64,000 bases of DNA from Acidimicrobiia bacterium (GCA_041751055.1 JBGSYD010000047.1:71875-135874), one strand, 5' to 3'; positions 4,337 to 49,273 are shown, counted from the stretch's first letter. Numbers and translations are program-made. The notes: generated by a model from the sequence alone, not told the origin.

Positions 4337-5335
4337 TCATCCTTCGATGCCAAGCAGTCGGGCTGCGTTCCCGCCACGTATGAGGTCTACGTCATCGGCC
4401 GTCAGATTTTCAACGGAGTTGATTAGACCGAGAGGGTCTTCGTCGCCCATGTCGTACGGGTAATCGGTTCCCAGCAGTACGTGGTCAGATCCGTATTTCT
4501 TGATGAGATAACCCAGTTGGTCCGGCTCGAAGACCATCGTGTCGAAGAAGAACTCCTTGAGGTATTCACTTGGGGGGCGGGGAAGCCCGTACCGGACGTC
4601 CTCTCGAGCGTGGTAGGCGTGATCAAACCGTCCTGAATAGGCCGGAAGAAAGCCACCGCCGTGTGCAAACACGATCTTCAATCCCGGGTGGCGTTCCATC
4701 ACGCCGTCGAAGATGAGTCGGCCCGCGCACAACGTCTCTTCGAGGGGATGACCGATCGTGTTGTAGAAGTAGTGATCGGTGAACCTGCCGGGATCTGTGA
4801 ATCCCATGGGATGGATGAAGACCACCATCTCCAATTCCTCGACGCTCTCCCAAAAAGGCTCAAAGCGTGGATTGGAGATCTCTTCGCCCAGGATGTGGGT
4901 GCTGATCTCGATTCCACGGAACCCGAGCTCGTGGTGGCATCTTTTCAGTTCAACGATTGCACTTTCGGAATCCTGGAGGGGCACCGCACCCAGGCCTACA
5001 AAACGCGCCGGATCAGCGGCGACCAGTTCCGCGAGGTCGTCGTTTATCGTCTGAAATGCACTCACACCCAATTCACCGCCGGCCCAGTAGAACTGGTGAT
5101 AGGGCGAAATGCTCAACGCTTGAACGTCGACTCCCATGGCGTCCATGTCCGCGAGGCGGACGTCGATCGATTCCATCTTGGGGCGAAGACCGGCGAGCTG
5201 CCGACGATTTACCTCCCTGGTCAGCTCGCTTCCTATTTGCAGTGGGGCACGACCCTGGCGATCAGCCTCAGGTTGAACCATGGCGGCGGCCTGTCCACAC
5301 TCGCGATGGCAATGGATATCGATTACTCGGGTCAT
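4337..5335 (-). CDS. amidohydrolase-2 family metal-dependent hydrolase/decarboxylase (ACMSD-like)
   Basis: N-terminal IDIHCH metal-binding motif, internal FIHPMG and AHGGG motifs, and a C-terminal LGTDYP motif. This is the TIM-barrel amidohydrolase_2 pattern. Confidence 0.7.
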   Translation of the reverse strand: MTRVIDIHCHRECGQAAAMVQPEADRQGRAPLQIGSELTREVNRRQLAGLRPKMESIDVRLADMDAMGVDVQALSISPYHQFYWAGGELGVSAFQTINDDLAELVAADPARFVGLGAVPLQDSESAIVELKRCHHELGFRGIEISTHILGEEISNPRFEPFWESVEELEMVVFIHPMGFTDPGRFTDHYFYNTIGHPLEETLCAGRLIFDGVMERHPGLKIVFAHGGGFLPAYSGRFDHAYHAREDVRYGLPRPPSEYLKEFFFDTMVFEPDQLGYLIKKYGSDHVLLGTDYPYDMGDEDPLGLINSVENLTADDVDLIRGGNAARLLGIEG

Positions 5336-5400
5336 GGACTCCTCAACGAACTGCTACGTGTGACATATCTTGCATAATATAGGGCGTTCGAGAAGGTGTC

Positions 5401-6294
5401 TCAATGCGTCCGGCTCTGACCCGTACGGCTCCTCACCACCTCGATAATCGAAGAATTGTCGAGATCGCCCAGGCCGGTCGATTCACCCCAGGCCAGGGCG
5501 TCCCGGACCACTTCTATCAGGTCGGTGGGCGACCCTATCTTGCGACCGTGTTCCACGATGAGCCGGGCATCTTTGTGGCTCTGTCGGAGTCGGGAGAATG
5601 GGGCGTCGTGCGCTCCGGCGATCATGCGCTCGCCCCAGACGTCCATCGCCTTTGAATATGAGAGCCCGTCTTTCAAGACTTCCAGGCTTGCATTGGGATC
5701 GAGGCCGCTCATCTCTGCGGTGACAAGGGCCTCGGCAAGGGCCATCCGATGAATCGATAGGACCTGGTTGACGATGAGTTTCATCGTTGCGCCGGACCCG
5801 ACATTTCCCACGTGGTGGTGGGACCGCCCGATCGTTTCGAATATGGGCCGTCCCGCATCGTAGGCTTCGACCGGACCACCGATCATGACCACCAGTTGCC
5901 CTCGCTCGGCCACTTCTCCGTTTCCACTCACCGTGGTGTCCGAATAGGTGATGCCAAACCGCGCCAGTGCCAATGCGACGTCTTCGGCGTCACCAGGCCG
6001 CCCCGTCGTGGTGTCGTATATGTAGAGAGGACTCACCCCCGAGGTCGAAATGCCGGCGTCACCAAGACATACCTCACGGGCGATGTCGGAATCTGGCAAG
6101 GAAAGCAGCGCCGCCCACGAACCCTCGACGGCTGCGGCAGGGGAGGCCGTTGGTTGGCCGCCCTTCTCCTCGAATTCGCGCAAGCGAACAGCGTTGGTGT
6201 CGAAACCACGCAGTTTGTATCCACCGGCCAAGAGGCGATCCGACATTCTTGATCCCATGAGACCTAGCCCGATGACGGCAATTGTTTGGCTCAT
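5401..6294 (-). CDS. 3-hydroxyisobutyrate dehydrogenase-family NAD(P)-dependent oxidoreductase
   Basis: N-terminal IAVIGLGLMGSRM Rossmann motif and overall HIBADH / 6-phosphogluconate-dehydrogenase-like NAD-binding pattern. It overlaps the upstream gene by 4 nt. Confidence 0.75.
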   Translation of the reverse strand: MSQTIAVIGLGLMGSRMSDRLLAGGYKLRGFDTNAVRLREFEEKGGQPTASPAAAVEGSWAALLSLPDSDIAREVCLGDAGISTSGVSPLYIYDTTTGRPGDAEDVALALARFGITYSDTTVSGNGEVAERGQLVVMIGGPVEAYDAGRPIFETIGRSHHHVGNVGSGATMKLIVNQVLSIHRMALAEALVTAEMSGLDPNASLEVLKDGLSYSKAMDVWGERMIAGAHDAPFSRLRQSHKDARLIVEHGRKIGSPTDLIEVVRDALAWGESTGLGDLDNSSIIEVVRSRTGQSRTH

Positions 6295-8330
6295 CGGACG
6301 GTCATCTCCCTGTTAGGTGATTGGTCTACACCATCGGCAACGATCAACCAGTCCACGGCAATCCACTCGTGGCCAGCCCAGATCAGCGGGTTTATTTCGA
6401 TCTCCTGGAGCCCCGAACCGACCAGCCCGCGACTGACGATGCTGACGATTCGTGCGAGTTCGTCGACGTCGGCAGGACTCCGCTTCCTGAAATCATCGAG
6501 ACCCGCTCTGAGCTTCAGGCTGTCGATCATCTCTGCAGCCTGCCGCTCGTTGACGGGAGCGATGGCGAACACGACATCACCGACGAGCTCTGCGAAGACT
6601 CCTCCAAATCCGACCGAAACAATCGGACCGAAGATCTCATGATGGATGGCGCCAACGATGACCTCAATGCCTGGTGTGTATTTCTGTAGTAGCGCCTCAG
6701 AGATCATGTGGCCGCTGGCCTCGATCGAGGCCATCAGTTCCGAGAAGGCCACTCTGACCCCCGCGGCATCCCCGAGGTTGAGTTTCACGCCCCCGTGTTC
6801 GGTCTTGTGTGCAATCGCAGCTGAGTGGACTTTCAACGCCACCGGATAGCCGATAGATTCAGCGGCCATTATTGCCTCGGTCGGGGAGCCAACAACCGTC
6901 CCGCGCAGGAGAGGCAAACCCCAACTGTCAAAGGCGCCACTGACGGTAGGAAGCGGCGTAGCAGGCCCCTCGATAGCGGACCTGGCTAGGGCTGCGATTC
7001 CCAGGATGGCCGCACGAGGGTCTTCGGTTACCGGTCTTCCCGCCTCCCGTAAACGCCTCAAGCTGGTGCGTGCCTGATCGCCGGCCATCCAGAGGTGAAC
7101 TATTGAGACCGGGGTTGTGAGGCCCAGCAATGACGCTGCTCGCTCTTCGGAATGGTTTGGTGAATGAGCTGTGGTCACCGCGAGAACGATGTCGTATTCA
7201 CCTGAATCGGCGAAGGCGCCAACCACCTCGGCAAAGCGGTGAGGTCCGCCGATGATCCCTCCCATGTCAACAGGATTGTCCACCGTTCCGTGATCTAACA
7301 GCGGTTTCACACGCGCTTTGAGTTGTGGGCTGGGAGTCTCGAGTACAAGCCGATGCCGCTCGGCCCGATCGGCGAGCATGATCGCCGTGCCGCCGGAATG
7401 GGTCACGATCGCCGCACGGGCACCGGTGGGCGATCCGGCCCGAGCCAACAACTCGGCCACATCCAGAGCCTCGGCGGGTGTCTCCGCAATCACGACCCCG
7501 AGAGACTCGAGAACTCCGTCCAATACCGGGCCTGAAACCGCTAGTGCACCGGTGTGTGATGTCATCAGTGCTCGGGCTCGATCTCCCGACCCAAGACGAC
7601 ACGCGACAACAGGCTTCCCCCGTGCTCGAGCGTCACGGATTCCGCCGATGAAAGAAGCTCCATCTCGAACCGTTTCAAGCACCACGACGATCGCATCAAC
7701 GGTGTCGACACCTGCGACCGTCGCCAATGCTTCACCCATTTCGATGTCGGCTTCGTTGCCTGTGGCGATTGAAATCGCCAGTCCTCCCTGGCGCTCAGCC
7801 GCGAGATTGTGGAGGAAGCTCCCGATGCCGCCGCTCTGGGTCACGAGCCCGACCGGTCCCGAGCGAATCTCGACCGCAGGTCGATCCAAACAGGTCAGAA
7901 AACTCGCAGCCAGATGGTGACTTGGGCATATCACCCCTCCGCTGTTGGGCCCGAGCAAGCGAACGTGCATCTCTTGTGCCAAGCGGCTGAGTTCATTCTG
8001 GTTGTCGAGCCCTTGTGGGCCTGATTCCCCGAAGCCTCCTGCAAAGACGATCGCCGCACCGACTCCGTCGCAGTCGCGAATAATGCTTGAAACCGCCGCA
8101 GCCGGGATGGCGCAGATCACCAGGTCTGGCGGCTCGGGGAGGTCGCTCATCTTTCCGAAGACTCCTACTTCCTTGATATCTGGCCGACTCGGGTTGACGC
8201 CCCAGATCTCGCCCGGGAACCCCAGATTTTGGAGATTGGTCAGTACCCGGCTCCCGTGCTTGTCCGGGTTGGCTGATAGCCCGACGATCGCGATTGTCCT
8301 TGGATCGATGAGGCGAATGAGATCGTTCAT
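6291..8330 (-). CDS. NDP-forming acyl-CoA synthetase (acetate--CoA ligase, ADP-forming type; fused alpha/beta domains)
   Basis: 679 aa. N-terminal CoA-binding domain (IAIVGLSANPDKHGSRV) followed by succinyl-CoA-synthetase-like and ATP-grasp regions. Confidence 0.75.
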   Translation of the reverse strand: MNDLIRLIDPRTIAIVGLSANPDKHGSRVLTNLQNLGFPGEIWGVNPSRPDIKEVGVFGKMSDLPEPPDLVICAIPAAAVSSIIRDCDGVGAAIVFAGGFGESGPQGLDNQNELSRLAQEMHVRLLGPNSGGVICPSHHLAASFLTCLDRPAVEIRSGPVGLVTQSGGIGSFLHNLAAERQGGLAISIATGNEADIEMGEALATVAGVDTVDAIVVVLETVRDGASFIGGIRDARARGKPVVACRLGSGDRARALMTSHTGALAVSGPVLDGVLESLGVVIAETPAEALDVAELLARAGSPTGARAAIVTHSGGTAIMLADRAERHRLVLETPSPQLKARVKPLLDHGTVDNPVDMGGIIGGPHRFAEVVGAFADSGEYDIVLAVTTAHSPNHSEERAASLLGLTTPVSIVHLWMAGDQARTSLRRLREAGRPVTEDPRAAILGIAALARSAIEGPATPLPTVSGAFDSWGLPLLRGTVVGSPTEAIMAAESIGYPVALKVHSAAIAHKTEHGGVKLNLGDAAGVRVAFSELMASIEASGHMISEALLQKYTPGIEVIVGAIHHEIFGPIVSVGFGGVFAELVGDVVFAIAPVNERQAAEMIDSLKLRAGLDDFRKRSPADVDELARIVSIVSRGLVGSGLQEIEINPLIWAGHEWIAVDWLIVADGVDQSPNREMTVR

Positions 8331-8447
8331 CGAAGTTGTGGTTCGACAGTTGGAGCTATTCCGGAGATGTAACCCTGCCAGGGCGAGAGAGGGGTTCCCT
8401 CAGTGGCCTTATTCCGATCGAGGGCTACAAGAGTCCCGATTTTCATC

Positions 8448-9653
8448 TCACAACTCAGGCCAAATTCTCACGACGCCCTCAGCGGCCAATCGCCTCACTT
8501 CTGATTCGCCGATGCCCAGCCGATCCTCGAGCACCTGAGATGTGTGCTGACCCAACATGGGAGCGGGCCTTTCTGAGCCTTCCCCACTGCTGAACTTCAT
8601 TGGGCTCGGTGGGTACCGCACTTCACCGACGGTCGGATGCCGATAGGTCTTGACCATATTTCGCGCCTTGACCTGAGGGTCTTCGAACACTTCGCCTATG
8701 TCGTTCACGGGTGCGCTCGGAATGTCGTATTTGTCAAGGATTCCGAGCCACTCGAGCCGGGTCTTGGTACGAAACACATCGTTGAGGATCGGATTCACGT
8801 ATTCCCGATTGGCCACGCGCGCCGCATTGTCGATGGTCCTGGGGTCTGTCTTCAGATCGGGTCGTGAGATCGCCTCGCAAAGGTTCTGCCAGAACTTCTC
8901 GTCGCGAGCAGCCACCACGATGTAGCCGTCACGGGCTTGGTAGGCCTGCCAGGGGACAAGATGGGCATGAGCGGTTCCTTGTCGGCTGATCCTCCGGCCG
9001 GAGTTGAGATGGTCCACCGCGTCGTAGGAGAGCATGGACACCAACGTGTCGAGCATTGCCACATCGGCATGCCGTCCATCACCGTGTAGCTCCCGGCCGA
9101 GTAGGCCGGCCAAAACCGCAATACAGGAGTAGATTCCGCCCGCAATGTCGGCAATCGGGATGCCCACCCGCGCCGGGTCACCGTCGCTGGGCCCGGTTAT
9201 GTCCAGGAGCCCGCTGTAAGCCTGCACAACCAGATCAAAGGCAGCCTTATCCCGCGCCGGGCCGAATTCTCCGAAGCCAGTGACGGAGACGGTGACGATG
9301 TCGGGATTGTGGGTTTTGAGTTTCGCATGGTCTATGCCGAGTCGCTCCATTACTCCCGGTCGGAAATTGTCGATCACGACATCGGCATTCGCCACCAGTT
9401 CATAGAACAGCTCCAACCCACGCTCGCTCTTGAGGTCCAGAACGACACTCTTCTTTCCGCGATTCATAAACAAGTGAATTGCGCTCTCGCCGCCGAGCGG
9501 CGCGATGGTCGGGTTGCGTGCCGTGTCGCCTTTGGGCGGCTCGATCTTGATCACTTCGGCACCCAGATCGGCCAGGATCACGCCCCCGAAGTTGCCCGCT
9601 ATCACTTGTCCCAATTCCAGGACTGTGATGCCAGAGAGCATTGGCGTTGTCAT
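8448..9653 (-). CDS. family III CoA-transferase (CaiB/BaiF family)
   Basis: The N-terminus GITVLELGQVIAGNFGGVILADLGAEVIKIEPP is the hallmark of family III CoA-transferases. Confidence 0.8.
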   Translation of the reverse strand: MTTPMLSGITVLELGQVIAGNFGGVILADLGAEVIKIEPPKGDTARNPTIAPLGGESAIHLFMNRGKKSVVLDLKSERGLELFYELVANADVVIDNFRPGVMERLGIDHAKLKTHNPDIVTVSVTGFGEFGPARDKAAFDLVVQAYSGLLDITGPSDGDPARVGIPIADIAGGIYSCIAVLAGLLGRELHGDGRHADVAMLDTLVSMLSYDAVDHLNSGRRISRQGTAHAHLVPWQAYQARDGYIVVAARDEKFWQNLCEAISRPDLKTDPRTIDNAARVANREYVNPILNDVFRTKTRLEWLGILDKYDIPSAPVNDIGEVFEDPQVKARNMVKTYRHPTVGEVRYPPSPMKFSSGEGSERPAPMLGQHTSQVLEDRLGIGESEVRRLAAEGVVRIWPEL

Positions 9654-9693
9654 GCCGACCTGCTGGCGTGAATAGCGGTGCTACATAGACGGG

Positions 9694-10575
9694 TCATGGT
9701 TTTGCCGCACGGGCAGCCATATCGGCCCTTTCGATGATCGTCCTTGCAACGCGGGCGACCGCGTAGTCCACCATCTTCCCGTCAACGGCGATGGATGCCG
9801 ACCCTTGGGACTCTGCCTCCTCGAATGCGGCAAGGACCTTCTTCTGATACTCAACGACTTCGGGAGTTGGAGTGAACACGTCGTTGATGATCGGGACTTG
9901 CGCCGGGTGAATTGCCACCTTGCCCACGTACCCGATGCGACGAGCCAACTCTGATTCGACACGTAGCGCTTCCAGGTCGCGGAAGTCCATAAACACAGCC
10001 TCCATCGGATACGGAACACCTGCTGCCCGCGAACTGAGCAAGACCTGAGATCGGGCGTGAAGAAGGCCGGTTCCTTCCGGGGTCCACTCCGCTCCAAGAT
10101 CGGCAACGAGATCGCCTTGCTCGCCGCCACCAAACATGACACATTGGATTCGTTCGCTTGCCCTCGCGATCTCGTAGGTCATGCGCACTCCGAGAGCGGA
10201 TTCGATCAGCGGTATCAGGGAGAGCGTTCCGACCGATTTTCCGCTCGACATCTCCAGAACAGTCAGCGCGCCGTCGACTTTGCTGATCAAACCCGGATCG
10301 TCAGCCTTGGGCAAAACCAGACCTGCAACATTTGCGACCGTTGCGGCGAGGACGTCGTCCCAGAGCAGACCGGTTTCGACAGCGTTCGTGCGTACATAAA
10401 AAGGCACGGTGGACTCAGGCAACTCCGCGAGGTTGTCACGGGCTGCTGCCTTGTTGTCGAGCGATACTGCGTCCTCGAGGTCGATTATCACCGCGTCGGC
10501 CCCCGACTTGATTGCCTTCTCGATCAGGTCGAGTCGGTGCCCCGGGGTGAACAACATCGAACGGACTGGATTCAT
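9694..10575 (-). CDS. HpcH/HpaI aldolase / citrate-lyase beta (CitE)-like acyl-CoA lyase
   Basis: The N-terminus RSMLFTPGHRLDLIEKAIKSGADAVIIDLEDAV matches the CitE / malyl-CoA-lyase family signature. Confidence 0.75.
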   Translation of the reverse strand: MNPVRSMLFTPGHRLDLIEKAIKSGADAVIIDLEDAVSLDNKAAARDNLAELPESTVPFYVRTNAVETGLLWDDVLAATVANVAGLVLPKADDPGLISKVDGALTVLEMSSGKSVGTLSLIPLIESALGVRMTYEIARASERIQCVMFGGGEQGDLVADLGAEWTPEGTGLLHARSQVLLSSRAAGVPYPMEAVFMDFRDLEALRVESELARRIGYVGKVAIHPAQVPIINDVFTPTPEVVEYQKKVLAAFEEAESQGSASIAVDGKMVDYAVARVARTIIERADMAARAAKP

Positions 10576-10664
10576 ATCACGCCTTTGCTTTGGGAAGACT
10601 CCGAATATTGCACGATATAGGATTGAAATGGTTTGGGTCTCCGGTCAGTGTTAATTTGCCCGGG

Positions 10665-11192
10665 ATGGACTCCAGTTCGAGACGTTTGGTGCAAGCCGAC
10701 GAACACGCGACAGCGCCAGGCGTTGGCGACACCGCTCCGCAATTCGAGTTGCGCCGTAGCTTCGAACAGGACGTCAGTCTGAGCGATCTCACTGCACGAG
10801 GATCTGTTCTTCTTGTTTTTTACGTTTTCGACTTTGGACATGTGTGAGGTCACGAGTTGTCCCAGTTGGGACAGATGACGGATCAGGTGCGCAAGTTGGG
10901 AGCCGAACCGGTGGCGATCGCCGTTACCGCCACATTTTCGCAGCTGGCTTTTGCCGAGGAGTTGGGAGTCGACTTCCCGATGTTGTCGGACTGGGATGGA
11001 ACGACTGCTAATGCATATGGAGTCCAGTACCGGGAGTGGAAAGGGCACTCCGGTCTGGCCAAGCGATCTGTGTTCGTGATCGACCGCGGCGGCGTGATTC
11101 GATACCGCTGGTCAACCGATGACGCGCTTATCGAACCCGACCTCCATGAAGCAGTTGCTGTTGTCGATTCATTGTCGTCTGATGCCAGCTAG
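10665..11192 (+). CDS. AhpE-like 1-Cys peroxiredoxin with an in-frame TGA (10845-10847) at the peroxidatic-Cys position; candidate selenoprotein, alternatively a nonsense pseudogene
   Basis: ORFs 10590-10847 and 10857-11192 are in the same frame and are separated only by the TGA. Read through, they give ...VLLVFYVFDFGHV-U-GHELSQL...FPMLSDWDGTTANAYGV...VFVIDRGGVIRYRW. This aligns along its length to AhpE/Bcp peroxiredoxins, with the TGA exactly where the peroxidatic Cys sits (compare GICQGELDQL in AhpE). The start is chosen at ATG 10665. Confidence 0.55.
10857..10874 (+). other. small stem-loop (7-bp stem including a G-U pair, loop AGUU) 9 nt downstream of the in-frame UGA; SECIS-like candidate
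   Basis: ttgtccc-agtt-gggacag is self-complementary. Its position immediately 3' of the UGA is where bacterial SECIS hairpins are found. It is short, so this is weak evidence on its own. Confidence 0.3.
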
Positions 11193-16826: not shown

Positions 16827-16930
16827 GGATCAGACATGAGTTTGGGGCCACGTCGCTGACCCATCGTATATGATGCATGATCGTTGACCGGGTCACATGC
16901 CGGCTGACGAAAACCAAAAAGGGAGACAAT

Positions 16931-17971
16931 ATGGCCAGAAAGGCCTTTCGCTACACCGCCTTATTTTCGATCCTGGCGCTTGTGGCCGCCGCTTGTGGCG
17001 GCGATAACTCGGGAGAAGACGGAGGCACGACGGACCCTGATGCACTCAAGGTGATCAGATTCGCCTTCGCACCCGACCCGGTCTGGGACTATCTGGTCGA
17101 TTCGGGAATCCGTGAGGAAATGGAGACTGCGGCCAATATCGCCATCCTCGACTCAGCGACCTGGAATGAGGTCGGTGTTTATGCCGGGGGCAACGCCGAT
17201 ATCATGTCGGTTGGTGACTTCGAGGTGCCAACGATCGAGCAGGAGTTCGGAATTCCGAGCGTCGTTTTCGGCAAGTACAACATCGATCGCAGCATCATCG
17301 TCGCCTCACCGGAGCATCCGGAGTACACAACTCTGGCGGACTGCGCCGGCGGCACGGTTGCTGTATGGGACACGTTGTCGTCAACCACCATCTGGGGAGT
17401 GCTGGCAAATGAATTGCACGGCCTCGACTTCCGTGTCGATGGTGGAGACTTCGAGCTTGTCGTAGTGGATATCACCAACACAGCCACCCAAGCAGCCAAC
17501 GGCGACACTGATTGCGCGATCGTATTGCCCGACTTCTCCATTCCGGTCCTCATGAATAACGAGGTCAACGTCCTCTACGACGGCAGGACTTCAGCGGACA
17601 TGTATGCAGAGGTTGTCGGCAAGCCCGGCCATGAAGGCCCCATGATCAATATCTTCCTCGCCCGCGAGGATTGGTATGACGACCATCCTGAAGAGGTAGC
17701 CTTCTTCCTCGCCCTCTGGGATCGGGGAGTCAAGGAATGGGCGGCCAATCGTGACGAGATCATCGCCAGCTATCCGCAACATTTCGCGGCCGAAGGTGAC
17801 GAACAAGTTGCGTGGATGCAGGACTACCTCAGCCAACACGACTGGTTCGCTAAGGGGATCTACCTCACCGACGAGTGGGTCGAGTCGGAATCTGAGCTGT
17901 TCGGCCTGTTGGAGGACGCCGGTTTGTCTGACACATCGGAGCCACCGAGGTTCGACGTAGTCTCTCCCTGA
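16931..17971 (+). CDS. ABC transporter substrate-binding lipoprotein (NitT/TauT-type inferred from partner genes)
   Basis: Start at MARKAFRY after a GGGAG ribosome-binding site. Signal peptide with lipobox LVAAAC. The gene is followed by two permeases and an SsuB/TauB-like ATPase. Confidence 0.6.
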   Translation: MARKAFRYTALFSILALVAAACGGDNSGEDGGTTDPDALKVIRFAFAPDPVWDYLVDSGIREEMETAANIAILDSATWNEVGVYAGGNADIMSVGDFEVPTIEQEFGIPSVVFGKYNIDRSIIVASPEHPEYTTLADCAGGTVAVWDTLSSTTIWGVLANELHGLDFRVDGGDFELVVVDITNTATQAANGDTDCAIVLPDFSIPVLMNNEVNVLYDGRTSADMYAEVVGKPGHEGPMINIFLAREDWYDDHPEEVAFFLALWDRGVKEWAANRDEIIASYPQHFAAEGDEQVAWMQDYLSQHDWFAKGIYLTDEWVESESELFGLLEDAGLSDTSEPPRFDVVSP

Positions 17972-18778
17972 GTGACGCAGAACGCGATTGAAACCGAGTC
18001 CCCTCGGTCCGCCCGCCGTAACTGGCGGCGGACCGGGGGACTTGTCCTGGGTTGGGGCGGCTTCATACTTTTGTGGGCCTTCGTGTCTGCCGTCATCCTC
18101 GACCAGTTCACTTTGCCTGGCCCCCTCAAGGTGGGCAAAGCAATGTGGGCCATCGTGGTCCAAGGTGAGTTCTTCGATGATTTTGCCGCCAGCATCACAA
18201 AGACCTTCATGGGATTCGGACTGGGCGTGGCTTTCGGTGTCCCTGTCGGCTATCTCATGGGTAGGAGTCGCTATTGGAAGGCTTTTTTCCACGACGGCGT
18301 AGTTGGCGCGGGAAGTGTCCCCGGCATCACATATGCAGTGTTGGCATTGGTGGTAGTCGGGACGGGTTACCTCGGGCCGGTCCTGGCGGTGGGGTTGATT
18401 TCGATGCCCTTCATCGCATTGAGCGTTGCCGAAGGGGTCGAAGGCGTCGATCAGAATCTCGTGCGGATGGCCACCGCATTCCGGAGGAACGATCGCCAGA
18501 TTGCTCGGGAGATCATGTTGCCGTCGATCATGCCCTTCGTCTTCGCAGGGGTCCGATTGGCCTTCGCAATTGCATGGAAGGTGGAGGCCTTGACCGAGGT
18601 CTTCGGGTCGTCAAACGGTGTGGGCTTTCAAATACGTTTCGCATTTCAGTCCTTCAGCATCACGAACGTTCTGGCCTGGACTCTTCTGTTTATCCTTTTC
18701 ATGCTCCTCATCGAGCGCGCCCTCGCTCTGGTTGAGCGAAGGGTTTTCGTGTGGCGGACCTGGGAGCAAACCGCATGA
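17972..18778 (+). CDS. ABC transporter permease (NitT/TauT family)
   Basis: GTG start immediately after the upstream stop. Multi-pass membrane protein with an EAA-like loop (AFRRNDRQIAREIMLP). Confidence 0.75.
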   Translation: MTQNAIETESPRSARRNWRRTGGLVLGWGGFILLWAFVSAVILDQFTLPGPLKVGKAMWAIVVQGEFFDDFAASITKTFMGFGLGVAFGVPVGYLMGRSRYWKAFFHDGVVGAGSVPGITYAVLALVVVGTGYLGPVLAVGLISMPFIALSVAEGVEGVDQNLVRMATAFRRNDRQIAREIMLPSIMPFVFAGVRLAFAIAWKVEALTEVFGSSNGVGFQIRFAFQSFSITNVLAWTLLFILFMLLIERALALVERRVFVWRTWEQTA

Positions 18779-19656
18779 CAGCGACAGTTGTTACAGAACC
18801 TCCACAGCGCACTAAGTGGCGGCGGATTTTGACGTCTGATACCGCTGCCCGAATCACTTTCTATATAGCGATCGTCGCCGGCTGGCAACTCCTTGCCTGG
18901 CAAGTCGACCGAATGCCAGCCCCGTGGGAGACCGCTGATTTCCTCTACCGGGAGCTGACAGCGGGTTCACACGGTGGTGTGCTTACCGGTGAGTTCTGGG
19001 AACATTTCCTTGCTACCTTGCAGCGGTTCATCGCCGGATTGGCAGTTGGCTTCGTGATCGGTGTCATCCTCGGGATAGCCATTGGTTCTTTCAACTTCGT
19101 ACGCAGTCTGCTCAACGACGTGATGCTGGTGTTCCTGGCCCTCCCGGCGGTTATCTGGGCCTTTCTCACTGTCATGTGGTTCGGCCTGGGATGGGAGGCT
19201 CCGGTCTACACGGTGATTCTGGCGACCATCCCGTTTGTGGCGGTAAATGTTGCTCAAGGCGTGCGTGCGGTGTCCCCAGATCTACATCGGATGTCTGATG
19301 CATTTGATGTTCCCCGACAGCGGCGACTACGCCATCTGCTCCTCCCGTCGATTACCGGGTACCTGTTCACGGGGTTGCGGTTTGCGGTGATCATCGGGTG
19401 GAACGCCGTTTTGTTGGCAGAGTGGTTTGGAGCATCGAACGGAGTGGGATGGCGATCCCGCTACTGGTATGACGCGGCGAGATATCGGGGATTTCTCGGT
19501 TGGGTCCTGGTCTTCATTGCCTTCATTTTCGTGTTGGACGGTTTAGTGATGCGACCCCTACAGCGACGGGCGTTTCGCTGGAGAGATGGCGGCGCAGAGG
19601 GTGACGGCGATCGTCCCGAGTCCGCAATCGAAAAGATGGCAGCAACAGGTGTTTAG
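18775..19656 (+). CDS. ABC transporter permease (second membrane subunit)
   Basis: The ATG at 18775 overlaps the upstream TGA in ATGA form. Hydrophobic, with an EAA-like loop (AFDVPRQRRLRHLLLP). Confidence 0.75.
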   Translation: MTATVVTEPPQRTKWRRILTSDTAARITFYIAIVAGWQLLAWQVDRMPAPWETADFLYRELTAGSHGGVLTGEFWEHFLATLQRFIAGLAVGFVIGVILGIAIGSFNFVRSLLNDVMLVFLALPAVIWAFLTVMWFGLGWEAPVYTVILATIPFVAVNVAQGVRAVSPDLHRMSDAFDVPRQRRLRHLLLPSITGYLFTGLRFAVIIGWNAVLLAEWFGASNGVGWRSRYWYDAARYRGFLGWVLVFIAFIFVLDGLVMRPLQRRAFRWRDGGAEGDGDRPESAIEKMAATGV

Positions 19657-23865: not shown

Positions 23866-24861
23866 ATGGAAGAAGAACGAATCGCTCTGTTTGTCGATTT
23901 TGAGAACCTTGCAATCGGGGCACGGGAAGCTTTGGGGGGCATGGAGTTCGATTTCGAGCCAATTGCAAACGCCCTCGCCGAACGAGGCCGGGTCGTCGCC
24001 CGGAAGGCCTACGCGGATTGGACGATGTTCGACAATGCCCGGCAGAACATGACGCGGAGCCACGTCGAGCTGATAGAAATCCCACAGCGGATGGGAGCAA
24101 CCCGAAAGAACGCTGCCGACATCAAGATGGCCGTTGACGCCATCGAATTGGCCTTCGAACGCGACTATGTGACCACGTTCGTGATCTGTACGGGCGATAG
24201 CGACTTCACACCTCTCGTCCACAAGCTGCGGGAGCTGAACAAGAAGGTGATTGGCGTGGGCGTGAAGGCGTCGACGTCCGCACTGCTGCCCCCGGCGTGT
24301 GATGAATTCCTCTTTTACGAGAACCTGGAGGGTATCGATCCCCGACCGGCGGAAACCTCCTCCAGCGATTCAACAGCGCCTCCCCAACTCGAGGCCCTCA
24401 TCACGACCACCCTGGCAGGACTCGGCCGCACGAGCGGGGGTGAGGTTCTCGCTTCCTCCCTGAAGCGGGCCCTCTTGCGGAAGGACTCGACTTTCTCCGA
24501 GACCGATCACGGATATCGGGCCTTTGGTGAGCTGCTCCGGGACCTGGAGAGCCAGGGCATCGTTGAACTTTCCGAGGGACCGGGCCGTGGAGACCCAATG
24601 GTTCAATTCCCCTCCAAGGGGAGCGGAGAGGAGGCCGCCTTCGCCTTGCTGGCCGGCGTTGTCTCAGAACTTTCGGGTAAGAACGGTCAGGTCCTTCTCT
24701 CCGGGCTGAAGAACCAGCTGCGGAAGAAAGACCCGGAGTTCTCGGAGAAGAAATTCGGCTATGGCGGATTTCTCCAATTCTGCAAAGGTGCTGAGCGTCG
24801 CGGGCTCATCGAGCTGAATTGGGATCAAGGAGCCGAGGATTACACGGTGGCGCCGGGGTGA
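23866..24861 (+). CDS. NYN (LabA-like) nuclease-domain protein with two C-terminal OST-HTH/LOTUS domains
   Basis: N-terminal IALFVDFENL...TFVICTGDSDFTPLVHKLRE is the NYN/LabA pattern. It is followed by two repeats of the form ...LLRK(K)D..FSE...GY..F..L.......G..EL, which is OST-HTH-like. Confidence 0.65.
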   Translation: MEEERIALFVDFENLAIGAREALGGMEFDFEPIANALAERGRVVARKAYADWTMFDNARQNMTRSHVELIEIPQRMGATRKNAADIKMAVDAIELAFERDYVTTFVICTGDSDFTPLVHKLRELNKKVIGVGVKASTSALLPPACDEFLFYENLEGIDPRPAETSSSDSTAPPQLEALITTTLAGLGRTSGGEVLASSLKRALLRKDSTFSETDHGYRAFGELLRDLESQGIVELSEGPGRGDPMVQFPSKGSGEEAAFALLAGVVSELSGKNGQVLLSGLKNQLRKKDPEFSEKKFGYGGFLQFCKGAERRGLIELNWDQGAEDYTVAPG

Positions 24862-28054: not shown

Positions 28055-30160
28055 ATGAGGAAGCCGTTCGACAGTATCCGCAAGATCCCCGCTGTCGGTG
28101 TTCTGGCCGAGCGGCAGATGGGTGGCTTTCTTGCAGTGGCGGCCCTGGTGGGTGTTGGTGTGGGTCTGGGTGCCGCCGGCCTTGTTTACCTTCTCGAACT
28201 GGTCAGCGACCTCACTGATCCGCTGCAGATCCACGACGGCTCTGCCTGGCTCTTGACCACGGTTCCGATCGGTTTCGCAGCAGCGTGGTTTCTGGCTCGC
28301 AGGCTCGCTCCGGAAGTTGCCGGCGATGGGGTTCCGGAGGCAGCAGTAGCACTCGAGGTGCACGGAGGCCGGATCCGCAAGAGGGTGTTCTCGCTGAAGA
28401 TCCTGGCAACGGTCCTTACCGTTGGCTCAGGTGGCTCGGCGGGACGGGAGGGGCCGATCGTCCAGATTGGCGGCTCGGTCGGAAGCGTGATGTCCCGTTG
28501 GTTCAACCTGGGTGAGGACCAGGTTCGATCTCTGGTCGCCGCCGGAGCAGGTGCCGGAATCGGGGCGGCCTTCAATGCACCCATCGCAGGGATGCTGTTT
28601 GCTCTTGAGGTCATCCTGGGGAGTTTTGCGTCACGCCATATGTCGGCGATAGTCATCGCCTCGGTGACCGCTGCCGTCACCTCCCGGCTTCTGGTGGGCG
28701 AAGAATTGGCTATCCGCGCCGGTTCCTATTCATTGGAGAGCTTCTACGAACTGATTGCCTACGCATTGATGGCTCTCGTCATCGTGACGGTGGGACTGCT
28801 CTTTCTTCGCATGCTCGAAGGGCTCGAGCAATTCATGGCGAAACGGGAATCGAAGCTCGGTGTGCTCCGCCCACTCGGGACAGGGCTCCTCGTGGCAGGA
28901 CTGATCATGCTCGAGCCCCGCTTGTTCGGCACTGGCCAGGAAGTGACCAACTCACTCCTCAACAACGAAAAATTAACCGCGGTGACCGGGGAGGGTCAGG
29001 AGTTCTGGTGGATTCTCATACTTCTTGGCATCGGAAAAGCAGCTGCGACTTCGTTGACCATCTCTTCTGGGGCATCGGGTGGCGCTTTCATGCCTTCGCT
29101 GTTCATGGGGGCGGCTGTTGGCACTGGGTTCGCACGTCTCGTCGACCCGGTATTCGGTGTCAATCTCGAACCTGGTGCATTTGCCGTTGTGGGCATGGCC
29201 GCGATGTTCGCCGTGGTTGCCAGGGCCCCACTCACGGCCATGTTGATCGTGTTCGAGATCACCGGGGCGCGGGACTACGGGCTGATACTGCCGCTGATGC
29301 TGACCGCGACCCTTGGGACTTTCCTGGCCGAGCGCTTCTCCTCAGATTCGGTCTACACAATGGCGTTGAAGCGCCGGGGTATCCGAATTCGGCAATCAGG
29401 GGAAGTCGACATTCTGGACACTGTGCACGTCGGCAGTGTCATGAGAATCCCGCAATACGTCGCTTCCTCTGCCGACATGTTGGTCCAGGCGACGGACCAA
29501 ATGCAGAAGCATCGTTCGCATGGAACACCGGTGGTCGATGACGGTGTCCTGGTTGGCATTATCACCATGACCGACATCTCCAGGACCGACGGCGACCCGG
29601 CCTCCGTCACCGTTGGAGAGGTCATGACGAAGCGTCCAATAACCGTGGTGCCGAGCACACCTGTGTCCCAGGCGCTAGAGCGTATGGCCGCTTTGGGGAT
29701 TGGCCGGTTGCCAGTGGTGGATGAGCACACCCCTAACCTCCTGGTTGGACTGTTCCGACGGGAGGAAGCCGTAAGGGCGTATCACGAAGCATTGGGGGCA
29801 TCGACGGGACATGGCCTCGAAAGAGCCCGACTGGCGAAAAGGCTCGATCCTGGGGCCGGCTATTACGACTTCAGGATTCCCAAAGGGTCCATGGCGGATA
29901 CGCGGCGCGTCGGCGAGGTAGTTTGGCCGGAGGGTTCGACCCTGGTGTCGGTGCAGAGGGGTCGGAACGTTATCGTTCCCAGTGGGGGCACAGTCCTCCA
30001 GGCTGGAGATGTAGTCACCGCTTTCGGGACCTGGTCCTCGAAACAGCGGATGATTGATCGGCTCAATGCGGGAGCGGATGAGCCCACCGCTGAGATTGAT
30101 ATCGTAGAAGTTGACGATGACGGTGTGATTGTGGAGGATGAATCCTCACCAGCTGTCTGA
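28055..30160 (+). CDS. ClC-family voltage-gated chloride channel with C-terminal CBS pair and TrkA-C (RCK_C) domain
   Basis: ClC selectivity motifs GSGGSAGREGP and GxFxP (GAFMPSLFMG), tandem CBS-like segments, and a terminal TrkA-C-like segment (VGEVVWPEGSTLVSVQRGRNVIVPSG). The start is chosen at ATG 28055. An ATG at 27950 would overlap the divergent ung start. Confidence 0.8.
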   Translation: MRKPFDSIRKIPAVGVLAERQMGGFLAVAALVGVGVGLGAAGLVYLLELVSDLTDPLQIHDGSAWLLTTVPIGFAAAWFLARRLAPEVAGDGVPEAAVALEVHGGRIRKRVFSLKILATVLTVGSGGSAGREGPIVQIGGSVGSVMSRWFNLGEDQVRSLVAAGAGAGIGAAFNAPIAGMLFALEVILGSFASRHMSAIVIASVTAAVTSRLLVGEELAIRAGSYSLESFYELIAYALMALVIVTVGLLFLRMLEGLEQFMAKRESKLGVLRPLGTGLLVAGLIMLEPRLFGTGQEVTNSLLNNEKLTAVTGEGQEFWWILILLGIGKAAATSLTISSGASGGAFMPSLFMGAAVGTGFARLVDPVFGVNLEPGAFAVVGMAAMFAVVARAPLTAMLIVFEITGARDYGLILPLMLTATLGTFLAERFSSDSVYTMALKRRGIRIRQSGEVDILDTVHVGSVMRIPQYVASSADMLVQATDQMQKHRSHGTPVVDDGVLVGIITMTDISRTDGDPASVTVGEVMTKRPITVVPSTPVSQALERMAALGIGRLPVVDEHTPNLLVGLFRREEAVRAYHEALGASTGHGLERARLAKRLDPGAGYYDFRIPKGSMADTRRVGEVVWPEGSTLVSVQRGRNVIVPSGGTVLQAGDVVTAFGTWSSKQRMIDRLNAGADEPTAEIDIVEVDDDGVIVEDESSPAV

Positions 30161-30175
30161 CGAGAGAGGGAATAG

Positions 30176-31102
30176 ATGCCTCAGGCCATTGTCGGGATAA
30201 TTGTCGTAGTCGTACTTCTGATAGCCGGCCGAGCATGGCTCAAGAAGCGGACCGCTGCCCAACTCGCGGGGTCCAGCCCCGACAAATCCAAAGGGTTGCC
30301 TGCGGGCTCGGTCGGGATGCGGAGTTCGCCACTGGCCGAATTCCATATCGTTGGCGACGAGGCAAGAGTCACCTTCGATGTTCCTCTCGACGACGAGGAT
30401 GACGAGATTCTCAACGAATTGCTCGTCGATGAAGCTGTTGAGGTCGTCCGCGAGAAACAGCACAGTTTTCCAATCGAAGAGGTGCATCACGTTGTGGTCT
30501 TTGCGGGGCGAGGTCAGGTTCGTGAAGTCGGTCGGACCAAGCTTCCTTCTCCAGGTGTGCTGCCGCCTCCGCCACCGGTCAACATGCTCAACCTGGGGAA
30601 CGTCACCCGGGATCCCTTTACCGCGGAGATTTCCACGGAGCCCTCTGTCGCCTATCAAACGAAGGCCGATGTCCCTGCCGACGAACTGCCCGCGATCGGC
30701 AAGGAACTGAAGATCCCGAAGGGCCTCGAGCGGGGCCTCCGCGCCACCGGAGTCGACATCAATGAGGCAGCCGGTCAAGACATAATCCTTGGTTTGCTGC
30801 GCTTGTTCGGATACAGCGTGGCCGCCACTCCGGAGCCCAACGTCTACATGGCGGGCAAAGGTGGGGAGAGCACCCTGGTTGTCGTCGATCCGTACATGAA
30901 GGGTGATTACCCCGAGGTCGAAGAGGCAACGGTGCGAGCCTTTGCAGGAAGATTCTCTATGTCCGGCGCTAGCCGTGGGGTTTTCGTCAGTGAGAAGTAC
31001 GCGCCTTTCATGATCTATTCGCTGGAGAAAAACGAGCCGAGGCTGAGATTCATCACACGGGAACGGCTGCAGGAATTCATCGACCTGATGGCGCTCGGAT
31101 AG
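30176..31102 (+). CDS. hypothetical membrane-anchored protein
   Basis: 308 aa with a single N-terminal TM helix (IVGIIVVVVLLIAG), an acidic central region, a proline-rich stretch (PPPPPVNMLNLGNV), and a C-terminal globular domain. I recognise no family. Confidence 0.5.
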   Translation: MPQAIVGIIVVVVLLIAGRAWLKKRTAAQLAGSSPDKSKGLPAGSVGMRSSPLAEFHIVGDEARVTFDVPLDDEDDEILNELLVDEAVEVVREKQHSFPIEEVHHVVVFAGRGQVREVGRTKLPSPGVLPPPPPVNMLNLGNVTRDPFTAEISTEPSVAYQTKADVPADELPAIGKELKIPKGLERGLRATGVDINEAAGQDIILGLLRLFGYSVAATPEPNVYMAGKGGESTLVVVDPYMKGDYPEVEEATVRAFAGRFSMSGASRGVFVSEKYAPFMIYSLEKNEPRLRFITRERLQEFIDLMALG

Positions 31103-31214
31103 ACATCTGCTGGGCCGGACACACCCCGATCGTGACAACCAACGCCAGGTTGGGGCCATACTGAGGCTTGATTAGCGCCCGCGGTAAGCTTTGAGTCCAC
31201 TAAGGAGGATTCGA

Positions 31215-31993: not shown

Positions 31994-32394
31994 GGCATCC
32001 GGACGTTTTGATCAGTGCGTACCTCGATGGTGAACTGACACTCGACGAGCGCCAGGACCTGATGGCTCACATGGGCCGATGCGGACGCTGCAGCCGCGAG
32101 ATAGCCGAGCTTCAGGGAATCAGGGCCGCGGTCCGCGCTCTTCCCGTGGTGGAAATGCCGGTCGGGCTCGTACCCGAGGCGGACGCCGAATTGTTGCCGT
32201 CGCACCGGAATCGAGGGATCTGGGTCGGAGCGGCCGCTGCTGTTGTTGCGGCCGTCATTACCGTCGCAACGTTGTTTGGGCCCACCCCTCCGACGATCTC
32301 CGTTGATGACCTCAACTCCCGGCTGGGAGCCAGAGTCTCCCTCGACCCGGCATTTGGCCCGGCGAAGGTCGTTATCCCCGAGGTGACAGAGTGA
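31990..32394 (+). CDS. zinc-binding anti-sigma factor (ZAS family; RseA/RsrA-like)
   Basis: The GTG start overlaps the sigma-factor stop in GTGA form. HxxxCxxC motif (H-MGR-C-GR-C) followed by a hydrophobic helix, which is the usual partner of ECF sigma factors. Confidence 0.65.
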   Translation: MRHPDVLISAYLDGELTLDERQDLMAHMGRCGRCSREIAELQGIRAAVRALPVVEMPVGLVPEADAELLPSHRNRGIWVGAAAAVVAAVITVATLFGPTPPTISVDDLNSRLGARVSLDPAFGPAKVVIPEVTE

Positions 32395-33314
32395 AGCGCG
32401 TGGTGGGGTTAGTCCTGGTGATGCTGCTTCTGCCGATTACGCCGGTGCTGGCTGTTGATCTCGACGAGATCTTGGAGCGAAGTGGAGAGGCCAGCTACAC
32501 CGCCGAACAACTCATCACATGTACGACTCCGGACGGGACCCGGAACGCCTTTATCCAGCTCAAGCAATCGCAAGGTGAGATCAGGTACAGCGCTGTCAAC
32601 GAATCCGACGTCGAGGTGTCGTCCGGATTCGGAGGCTGGGCTCTTCAATCTGGAGGCACCAGGATCGAGCCCAAAACGGCTGGGGAGGCAGAACTCGCTG
32701 TAGCCGAGGTACCGACCTACATCGTCGATGAGGGGAGCAGTGTGACTTTCCTCGGGCGCCCCGCCACCTCGTACGAGCTTCAAAGGGACGGCATTGCGCG
32801 CGCACAGCTCGTGGTGGACGATGGAATCGGCGTCCTGGTCAGCGTCACCAGCTTCGATGCTGATGGTGCGGTCTATTGTCAACGTCGATTCATCTCTTTC
32901 GACCCGACATCGCCACTGTGGTCTTCTTGGTCCGGGACGGACATCGAAGCCATCGAGAACAGCGAGGCGGCAACACTCCCGGATCAACTGAACGGCTTCA
33001 GACGATTGGATTTCTATCAGGACGAGTCCGGCCTGAGCTTCGCCTATTACTCGGACGGGTTCTTTTCGTTTGCGGTGTTTCAGAGCACGTCTCAGGTAAT
33101 TCTTGATGACGTCACCACCTATGAGTTGGATGGCAGTGAGTATCAGCGCCAGTTCAACCCGGGTCAGGTCACTTACACCTGGGCGGTCCGGGATGGCTGG
33201 ATGGCACTGACGGGCGACCTACCCCCGGATATGCACGAAGCGGTCCTGGCCGGATTGGAAGAGCCGCACGAGGCCGGTTTGTGGCGCAGGCTGTGGCGTC
33301 GGATATTCGGATAG
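32391..33314 (+). CDS. secreted protein of unknown function (possibly MucB/RseB-like)
   Basis: The GTG start overlaps the anti-sigma stop in GTGA form. N-terminal signal peptide MKRVVGLVLVMLLLPITPVLA. The RseB-like assignment is from operon position only. Confidence 0.45.
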   Translation: MKRVVGLVLVMLLLPITPVLAVDLDEILERSGEASYTAEQLITCTTPDGTRNAFIQLKQSQGEIRYSAVNESDVEVSSGFGGWALQSGGTRIEPKTAGEAELAVAEVPTYIVDEGSSVTFLGRPATSYELQRDGIARAQLVVDDGIGVLVSVTSFDADGAVYCQRRFISFDPTSPLWSSWSGTDIEAIENSEAATLPDQLNGFRRLDFYQDESGLSFAYYSDGFFSFAVFQSTSQVILDDVTTYELDGSEYQRQFNPGQVTYTWAVRDGWMALTGDLPPDMHEAVLAGLEEPHEAGLWRRLWRRIFG

Positions 33315-33333: not shown

Positions 33334-33792
33334 TCAGTAGGCGGCCAATGCCTCGCCGTAGCGATCGAATTCGCGAGCCTCACCGAGGACATCCGATGAG
33401 ATTACGTCCCGGATCACCGCATCCCCATCGAGGAAATATGTGACTCGCTTGGAATAGCCAAACCGCTCGTCAAAGGCGTCGTACCTACGTGAAACGTCCC
33501 CGTGGGGCCAGAAATCGGCAAGCACATCGAAGGTGAACTGGTTCTGCCTGACCCATTCCGCGTTAGTCGAGGTGGCATGTGCTGTGATGACCACAACTCG
33601 AGCCCCGGCATCGCTCAATGAGCCCATCGTGTCGCGAATGTTGCACAGCTCGGTCGTGCACACACGCGTGAAGGGGTAAGGGACGAAAACGACCATCGAC
33701 TTGTCGCCGAGGAGATCATCGCGAGAGACCTTGTCGAGAGTATGGCTCCGCAACAAGAAATCGGGCGCAAGAGTTCCGACGTTCAGAACCAC
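33334..33792 (-). CDS. AhpE-like peroxiredoxin (conventional Cys form)
   Basis: GTG start. MVLNVGTLAPDF, FTRVCTTE (peroxidatic Cys) and LADFWPHGDVSRRY align to AhpE. Confidence 0.8.
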   Translation of the reverse strand: MVLNVGTLAPDFLLRSHTLDKVSRDDLLGDKSMVVFVPYPFTRVCTTELCNIRDTMGSLSDAGARVVVITAHATSTNAEWVRQNQFTFDVLADFWPHGDVSRRYDAFDERFGYSKRVTYFLDGDAVIRDVISSDVLGEAREFDRYGEALAAY

Positions 33793-49183: not shown

Positions 49184-49273
49184 TCGAACGACAACCGAGG
49201 TGGCTGGTTTGGGGAGGACACCGAACTCGTGCCACTGGCCAGTACAACCACGAGCCACGTACACTCGATTTCA

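Follow-up and report, generated by a model that had tools for sequence, protein, structure and literature searches.

Introduction

Selenocysteine (Sec)-containing peroxiredoxins are an established kind of selenoprotein, as exemplified by PrxU of Eubacterium acidaminophilum and by the abundant marine "Prx" family (TxxU; COG1225/PF00578) (PMC1088965, PMC13188914), and a PxxxTxxU motif is described as highly conserved among them (PMC13188914). The latter source also describes thioredoxin-fold, PF00578-related Prx-like selenoproteins comprising UxxC/UxxU oxidoreductases, cd02970 (UxxS) and Prx-SUH (CxxU). In an actinobacterium, Blastococcus saxobsidens DD2, an AhpC selenoprotein with Sec encoded by TAG and with a bacterial selenocysteine insertion sequence (bSECIS) has been reported (Santesmasses et al. 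2017, PMC5330540, S4 Fig). Here we analyze a gene at positions 10665-11192 (+) of a 64,000-nucleotide (nt) stretch from an Acidimicrobiia bacterium (GCA_041751055.1 JBGSYD010000047.1:71875-135874; this whole stretch is referred to as the window). Comparative sequence evidence allows us to assign it, with high confidence, as a genuine selenoprotein gene encoding one peroxiredoxin-superfamily protein with Sec at the peroxidatic position 61, and as a member of a family that differs from the known Sec-peroxiredoxins by a variant active site.

The window protein shares with PrxU and the marine Prx family the PF00578 domain, Sec at the peroxidatic position and a bSECIS-type element inside the coding region. 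However, PrxU and the marine Prx proteins keep PxxxTxxU, whereas the window family reads VxxxGxxU, and PrxU is a protein of about 230 residues (by its NCBIfam model) as compared with 175 residues here. Assignment to the Prx-like UxxC/UxxU, UxxS or CxxU families was considered and rejected, the window sequence reading U-G-H-E with no Cys nearby. The AhpC of B. saxobsidens and the window family are alike in being actinobacterial AhpC/TSA proteins in which Sec takes the place of the catalytic Cys and a bSECIS follows directly downstream; very probably they represent the same family, as a Blastococcus ortholog in our set also carries TAG. The published account, in the part that presents this AhpC (a single sentence and a supplementary figure), covers one genome and UAG recoding; the breadth of the family, its UGA members and its non-canonical active site fall outside that part.

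Among Cys-dependent relatives, the archaeal Bcp/PrxQ proteins (Aeropyrum pernix 2cx3; Sulfolobus 2ywn and 3hjp) resemble the window protein in length, in the C-terminal "Y(K/R)W ... DP ... EP" pattern and in the catalytic Arg, but have Cys, Pro, Ser/Thr and mostly a resolving Cys where the window protein has Sec, Val, Gly and Ser. AhpE of Mycobacterium tuberculosis is likewise a small actinobacterial peroxiredoxin with a single redox residue and a requirement for an external reductant, but is a weaker match to the Sec protein than the Bcp types.

Results

Gene structure and position of the in-frame stop codon

In the list of open reading frames (ORFs), the locus appears as two pieces in one frame (10590..10847 and 10857..11192), and its translation yields 175 codons with one internal stop, the TGA of codon 61, followed by 114 further codons to the gene end (Table 1). 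The start position is common to the closest orthologs, whose N-terminus reads M/V-D-x-T/S-S/T-R/H/Q-R. With C placed at the stop, the product matches the Pfam AhpC-TSA domain (PF00578) with E = 3.7e-27 and 95.2 bits (cut-off 26), covering profile positions 1-123 of 124; the stop lies inside this match, and therefore the domain is continuous through it. The stop codon aside, the translation of the window protein contains no Cys at all. In alignments with solved peroxiredoxins, the stop falls on the peroxidatic Cys (query "fdfghvCghel" vs. 2cx3 "paafspvCtkel"), and it is also aligned with the catalytic Cys of four Cys homologs (P0230, P0238, P0243 and L027) and of a second peroxiredoxin encoded in the window. 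An earlier interpretation made from the window sequence alone (the sequence-only reading) had proposed two same-frame ORFs split only by this TGA, with the UGA located exactly at the peroxidatic-Cys codon; both proposals are borne out.

Scanning a single genome for each species yielded 27 loci, 26 of them actinobacterial and one distant archaeal (Natronomonas), the orthologs being contributed by Acidimicrobiia metagenome-assembled genomes (MAGs; mainly from soil catalogues), one Nocardiopsaceae MAG, Geodermatophilus and Blastococcus. At the DNA level, a stop is present at the identical codon, after FYVFDFGxx, in 26/26 actinobacterial orthologs (23 TGA and 3 TAG), which originate from independent assemblies and show 54-77% identity. 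The sole non-stop among the scanned loci is the Natronomonas match (36% identity), with Cys at the site, and two extra family loci that were fetched separately (L029 and L030) have TGA. Thus, the TGA of the window, for which the alternative of TGC/TGT in orthologs had been raised, does not represent a strain-specific nonsense mutation. The family alignment used below comprises 27 sequences with 24 TGA (window included) and 3 TAG.

The codon at the Sec site follows the lineage

The three TAG cases are all three Geodermatophilaceae in the set, namely Geodermatophilus africanus DSM 45422, Blastococcus sp. CT_GayMR19 and a Geodermatophilus MAG. A TGA is retained in L030, a locus from outside the Geodermatophilaceae with 72% GC and a protein 72% identical to that of Blastococcus. 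According to PMC5330540, which cites Mukai et al. 2016, Geodermatophilaceae genomes encode a tRNA-Sec whose anticodon is CUA, and their selenoprotein genes use UAG for Sec. Thus, the codon at this site co-varies with lineage and appears to follow the Sec tRNA (TGA in most members, TAG in Geodermatophilaceae), a pattern that would be hard to explain unless tRNA-Sec decodes it; since the switch from TGA to TAG is confined to the lineage with a UAG-reading Sec tRNA, decoding by tRNA-Sec is favoured.

A conserved hairpin downstream of the stop codon

The hairpin with a 7-bp stem and an AGUU loop noted by the sequence-only reading 9 nt past the TGA is confirmed by the sequence and by RNAfold, which forms 6 of the 7 pairs (the 7 including a terminal U-G) at -9.7 kcal/mol with z = -4.2 vs. 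shuffles. When the 27 sequences are folded one by one, almost all of them form this hairpin, its distance from the stop being unchanged, and the consensus structure consists of 5 bp (alignment columns 15-19 with 24-28, corresponding to window positions 10859-10863 with 10868-10872) closed by an invariant AGUU loop, with GUCCC-AGUU-GGGAC as the conserved core. Counted over all 7 pairs, the alignment has 85.7% of its cells paired, a share that falls to 40-52% if the 3' partners are shifted by 1-3 columns; the observed covariation score was reached by 2/500 shuffles, and compensated changes are found in L006 (U-A to G-C), L024 (a shifted A-U) and L026. The core starts 11 nt after the UGA, a spacing also reported for the minimal Escherichia coli fdhF SECIS. 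A possible extended lower stem can be drawn in the window sequence (Table 1), but its pairs vary between sequences and it is absent from the family consensus structure.

Stronger evidence for the hairpin than covariation is provided by fixation at synonymous sites. The codons of the 5' arm and loop show no synonymous variation (Ser TCC in 23/23, Gln CAG in 27/27 and Leu TTG in 25/25, the U residues of the loop coming from the TTG codon), whereas other conserved Ser columns have 1-2.2 bits of codon entropy and other Leu columns mostly use CTG/CTC, which establishes a constraint acting on the hairpin at the RNA level.

The bSECIS model (PMC13188914, Fig. 2) has an apical loop of 3-9 nt with a G at loop position 1 or 2 and a G or U next to it on the 3' side, an upper stem of 4-16 bp, a UGA-to-loop distance of 16-37 nt and a minimum free energy of at most -7.5 kcal/mol. 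The hairpin of the window falls within the model in each of these respects, with a loop of 4 nt (A-G-U-U, G-U at positions 2-3), a stem of 5-7 bp (5 conserved), 16 nt between the UGA and the loop (10848-10863) and the free energy given above, and the check for a bacterial SECIS in this region, suggested by the sequence-only reading, had a positive outcome.

These data bear on a hairpin-stimulated read-through of the stop in which a standard amino acid (for example Trp, Cys or Arg, through suppressor or near-cognate decoding) rather than Sec would be inserted. Structure-stimulated stop read-through does occur in bacteria and viruses, no Sec machinery was found in the window, and CGA (Arg) occupies the site in one relative; however, the site is that of the redox-catalytic residue, with a chemistry performed only by Cys or Sec, the TGA-to-TAG switch in a family with a reported CUA tRNA-Sec is not predicted by such a mechanism, and the hairpin fits the SelB-type SECIS model by its loop G-U and spacing. 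On balance, we regard the insertion of a standard amino acid as very unlikely as compared with decoding by tRNA-Sec.

Breadth of the family and its representation in databases

Used as a query against 5.8 billion proteins, the read-through product gave 598 matches at E <= 1e-5, the best 120 of which are all 96-129 residues long and span no more than the C-terminal ~60% of the query. Such a uniform population of C-terminal fragments is characteristic of gene callers stopping at a conserved stop codon and restarting downstream. With the C-terminal fragment P0001 as query, an exhaustive HMMER search over 1.84 billion representatives gave three clusters only at E < 1e-30. All three are of the truncated type, and the full-length homologs that come nearest reach 47% identity at most. 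In RefSeq/GenBank, the products are labelled "redoxin domain-containing protein" (about 103-127 residues). Only two database entries appear as "full-length" products, one being a variant with CGA at the Sec site (L028) and the other a JGI protein of 156 residues with Trp at the site (P0124; locus L029, gene 268-738 of a JGI 3300071300 contig). The DNA of the latter has TGA, and the Trp evidently results from translation with a code reading TGA as Trp.

Overall, the family amounts to 598 to 905 cluster representatives, mainly from soil Acidimicrobiia and Geodermatophilaceae, so that the earlier view of such proteins as uncommon in Actinobacteria does not hold for this family. The roughly 600-900 relatives retrieved from databases include no Cys form of this clade; judging from these sequences, the Sec form of the family is apparently exclusive.

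The fragments also form the basis for an alternative in which translation truly terminates at 10845 to give a 60-residue N-terminal peptide and/or a separate 111-residue C-terminal protein, as an ORF with a TTG start at 10857 does exist and databases do list products of such a size. Yet this TTG is a Leu codon (Leu65) at the base of the hairpin 5' arm, and the starts chosen by gene callers vary between codons; in many orthologs the called start is the loop TTG, with products beginning M-G-, and these differing starts account for the spread of product lengths over 96-129 residues, with no conserved initiation site among orthologs. In addition, termination would break the thioredoxin fold one residue short of the catalytic one, so that both pieces would lack a redox centre, and the continuity of the frame is conserved in all orthologs. 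We consider true termination even less probable than insertion of a standard amino acid.

Coding constraint on both sides of the stop codon

In the 41 codons compared upstream of the stop, nonsynonymous divergence (pN) is 0.13-0.37 vs. a saturated synonymous divergence (pS) of 0.72-0.99, and the downstream part behaves alike, establishing that purifying selection acts on both gene halves. The window copy has kept all residues that are shared throughout the 27-sequence alignment. The argument of the sequence-only reading that conservation past the stop speaks against a dead pseudogene is thereby upheld, pN being far below pS on both sides. A pseudogene or a sequencing error, i.e., a TGC/TGT codon hit in this strain by a nonsense mutation or a base-call error, needs one base change and would agree with the public annotation of the locus as a truncated gene, but has a negligible probability in view of the same-codon stop throughout the independently assembled orthologs, the lack of a Cys form among the database relatives, the strong selection on both halves and the intact set of family-invariant residues.

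Protein family and active site

The best solved relatives of the read-through product are archaeal Bcp/PrxQ-type peroxiredoxins (2cx3 at 1e-20, 2ywn at 1.7e-19 and 3hjp at 4e-19, over residues 20-171) out of 129 PDB peroxiredoxin sequences at E <= 1e-3, and the match to M. tuberculosis AhpE (Rv2238c) is weaker (8e-16, about 1e-15). The AhpE subfamily was rejected on this ground. Thus, the description of the protein as AhpE/Bcp-like along its length is confirmed with respect to the full AhpC-TSA match and a Bcp/PrxQ-type nearest relationship, while "AhpE-like" proved imprecise, AhpE scoring lower. None of the NCBIfam models reaches its cut-off for the read-through protein; the PrxU equivalog (NF040737) was rejected at 57.4 bits vs. 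a cut-off of 270, and Prx-SUH at 32 bits vs. 298.

The redox residue U61 is in place, but the canonical P-x-x-x-T/S-x-x-C(U) motif is not present, with Val54 replacing Pro and Gly58 replacing Thr/Ser in all 27 family sequences, so that the family active site is VxxxGxxU. The sequence-only reading had not remarked on the missing Pro and Thr. In an ungapped alignment, the nearest Cys homologs read FYPFDF[S/T]xxC-T-x-E-L-C where the Sec family reads FYVFDFGxxU-x-x-E-L-S. The catalytic Arg, sought in the strand ...KR[SA]xF[VI]xD, is kept as Arg134 (alignment column 118), which is invariant in 27/27 sequences and corresponds in alignments to the Arg found in the Cys homologs and the PDB matches. 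The resolving-Cys position, five residues past the peroxidatic residue, is occupied by Ser66 (TCC in 23/27 sequences, otherwise Ala or Thr); this argues against a two-Cys mechanism and not against relatedness to Bcp, as some Bcp enzymes have no Cys at that position.

Many orthologs, including those of Geodermatophilaceae and several Acidimicrobiia, contain a Cys in a R-T-V-C-x-x-Y-G segment near window residue ~115 (11007-11009). This Cys could act as a resolving residue in those proteins; the window protein has Ala there.

Sec machinery and the genetic code of the window

No SelA, SelB or SelD domain was detected in window ORFs of >= 300 residues, and no tRNA and no Rfam family was detected in the window, in agreement with the earlier statement that it holds no selA, selB, selD or tRNA-Sec gene. 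For the hairpin, an Rfam match was not expected because bacterial SECIS elements are poorly represented in Rfam. ARAGORN found no tRNA-Sec near any of the 27 family loci. A global reassignment of TGA was rejected, as TGA ends 36/53 other ORFs of the window. Other TGA-interrupted genes were looked for in the window by inspection of long same-frame ORF pairs, which proved to be just ordinary adjacent genes; a scan based on GC content at third codon positions did not separate frames at 59% GC and missed the target gene itself. In another order of the class Acidimicrobiia than that of the window organism, Actinomarinales, selA, selB, selC and selD are reported in all 84 complete genomes (preprint 10.64898/2026.04.03.716425). 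This particular organism is presumed to be capable of Sec incorporation.

Second peroxiredoxin and other genes of the window

The sequence-only reading had also proposed a Cys/Sec paralog pair. A genuine Cys-containing AhpE is indeed encoded in the window (Table 1), but its identity with the Sec protein is just 29%, and the two do not form a close pair; by sequence, the organism has two different peroxiredoxin subfamilies and not a recent Cys/Sec pair.

Clustering of flanking ORFs, which is noisy due to antisense ORFs in high-GC DNA, revealed no family-wide partner gene or sel gene beside the peroxiredoxin gene. Local synteny is observed in the nearest relatives only, with a downstream amidohydrolase and a GFO/IDH/MocA oxidoreductase. 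Five co-oriented genes immediately upstream of the Sec gene and divergent from it (Table 1) look like a coenzyme A (CoA)-dependent organic-acid catabolic cluster.

Several further genes were noted in passing. A 331-residue protein encoded at 23866-24861 (+) combines a NYN ribonuclease domain with an OST-HTH/LOTUS domain, and an unusually long DivIVA-domain protein (593 residues) is followed by a 969-residue UPF0182 family membrane protein at 47402-52138 (+). Four ORFs of 300-380 residues are without a Pfam match at E <= 1e-5: 16877-17971 (+), the terminal TGA of which abuts the start of the next ORF, with an ABC permease gene further on at 18751-19656; 30146-31159 (-); 32391-33314 (+), with an N-terminal hydrophobic, signal-peptide-like stretch; and 61715-62848 (+).

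Table 1. Coordinates of the features discussed in the text (window positions unless a locus is named).
Feature	Position	Strand	Details
Cluster of five genes	4337-10575	-	amidohydrolase_2; 3-hydroxyisobutyrate-dehydrogenase-like; ADP-forming acyl-CoA synthetase (CoA_binding/ATP-grasp_5); family III CoA-transferase; HpcH/HpaI (citryl/malyl-CoA-lyase-like) aldolase
Predicted selenocysteine peroxiredoxin-family gene	10665..11192	+	ATG 10665; predicted Sec codon 61; TAG stop 11190-11192; 175 residues
Active-site lead-in V54-F-D-F-G58-H-V60	10824..10844	+	FYVFDFG invariant or nearly so in 27/27 sequences
In-frame TGA, predicted Sec residue 61, peroxidatic position	10845..10847	+	aligned with catalytic Cys; stop kept in family
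Possible extended lower stem (GGUC.AC ... GGAUC)	10848..10885	+	-15.6 kcal/mol, z = -2.5; this sequence only
bSECIS-type hairpin UUGUCCC-AGUU-GGGACAG	10857..10874	+	core 10859-10872; apical loop AGUU 10864-10867
AhpE-type one-Cys peroxiredoxin	33334-33792	-	7.7e-25 to Rv2238c, full length; motif P-Y-P-F-T-R-V-C
TAG at predicted Sec site of orthologs	L013:3139-3141, L016:3163-3165, L017:3154-3156		Geodermatophilaceae (in this order: G. africanus, Blastococcus sp. CT_GayMR19, Geodermatophilus MAG); downstream SECIS hairpin unchanged

Discussion

The candidate selenocysteine peroxiredoxin suggested by the sequence-only reading is supported by the stop shared among orthologs, by the selection acting on both gene halves, by the switch between TGA and TAG and by the synonymous-site constraint on the hairpin, and we consider the assignment of a selenoprotein gene to be highly probable. 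Several observations nevertheless weigh against it. Covariation in the hairpin is thin, with double changes in 2 pairs only and support coming mostly from invariance; the peptide ELSQLG is itself conserved, so that the nucleotide conservation is partly at the protein level; a 48-nt fold is unexceptional (z = -1.4); and the 16-nt spacing lies at the bottom of the range of the bSECIS model. The 64-kb window is devoid of selA, selB, selD and tRNA-Sec. The canonical Pro and Thr/Ser are gone, which makes the fold a safer assignment than peroxidase activity. Finally, one family member (L028, gene 1115-1609 of a 1671-bp Logan SRR33880243 contig) has CGA (Arg) at the Sec position with the FYVFDFG motif and the hairpin intact; this may reflect an error in sequencing, a mutation that inactivates the protein or sense-codon Sec recoding, with one low-coverage contig behind it.

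If the gene operates by the standard bacterial pathway, a ribosome meeting the UGA at codon 61 would be served by the hairpin just downstream acting as a bacterial SECIS, which would recruit SelB-GTP with Sec-tRNA-Sec, so that Sec would be inserted and translation would proceed through the remaining codons. By homology, the product would be a thiol-dependent peroxide reductase using one selenocysteine: the selenolate would attack the peroxide to form a selenenic acid, which an external thiol reductant would recycle, a dependence that follows from the presence of one redox residue only. It is plausible that the selenolate dispenses with the Thr hydroxyl that activates the thiolate in Cys peroxiredoxins; we propose that this hydroxyl would be unneeded because a selenolate, at neutral pH, has already lost its proton and is the stronger nucleophile.

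A more far-reaching and rather tentative possibility, for which the odds appear to be less than even, is that these proteins constitute a distinct and practically unannotated soil-actinobacterial Sec-only clade in which Sec made the elsewhere universal Pro and Thr/Ser, and the resolving Cys, dispensable (VxxxGxxU...S), with a mechanism or substrate unlike those of textbook peroxiredoxins, and which may serve as a marker of Sec-codon reassignment (TGA, TAG and possibly CGA). The wide occurrence of the family in soil Acidimicrobiia, its apparently Sec-only form, its uniform mis-annotation and the VxxxGxxU site appear to be undescribed in the literature examined.

Overall, this analysis corrects a systematic annotation error, as hundreds of RefSeq, JGI and ENA entries are fragments and no NCBIfam model captures the full-length selenoprotein. 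With its codon tracking the tRNA-Sec anticodon across lineages, the family provides an internal control for Sec decoding, and the loss of Pro and Thr in a Sec-only family offers a testable case of selenium altering active-site requirements. For the organisms themselves, the family points to a use of selenocysteine by soil Acidimicrobiia in their defence against oxidative stress.

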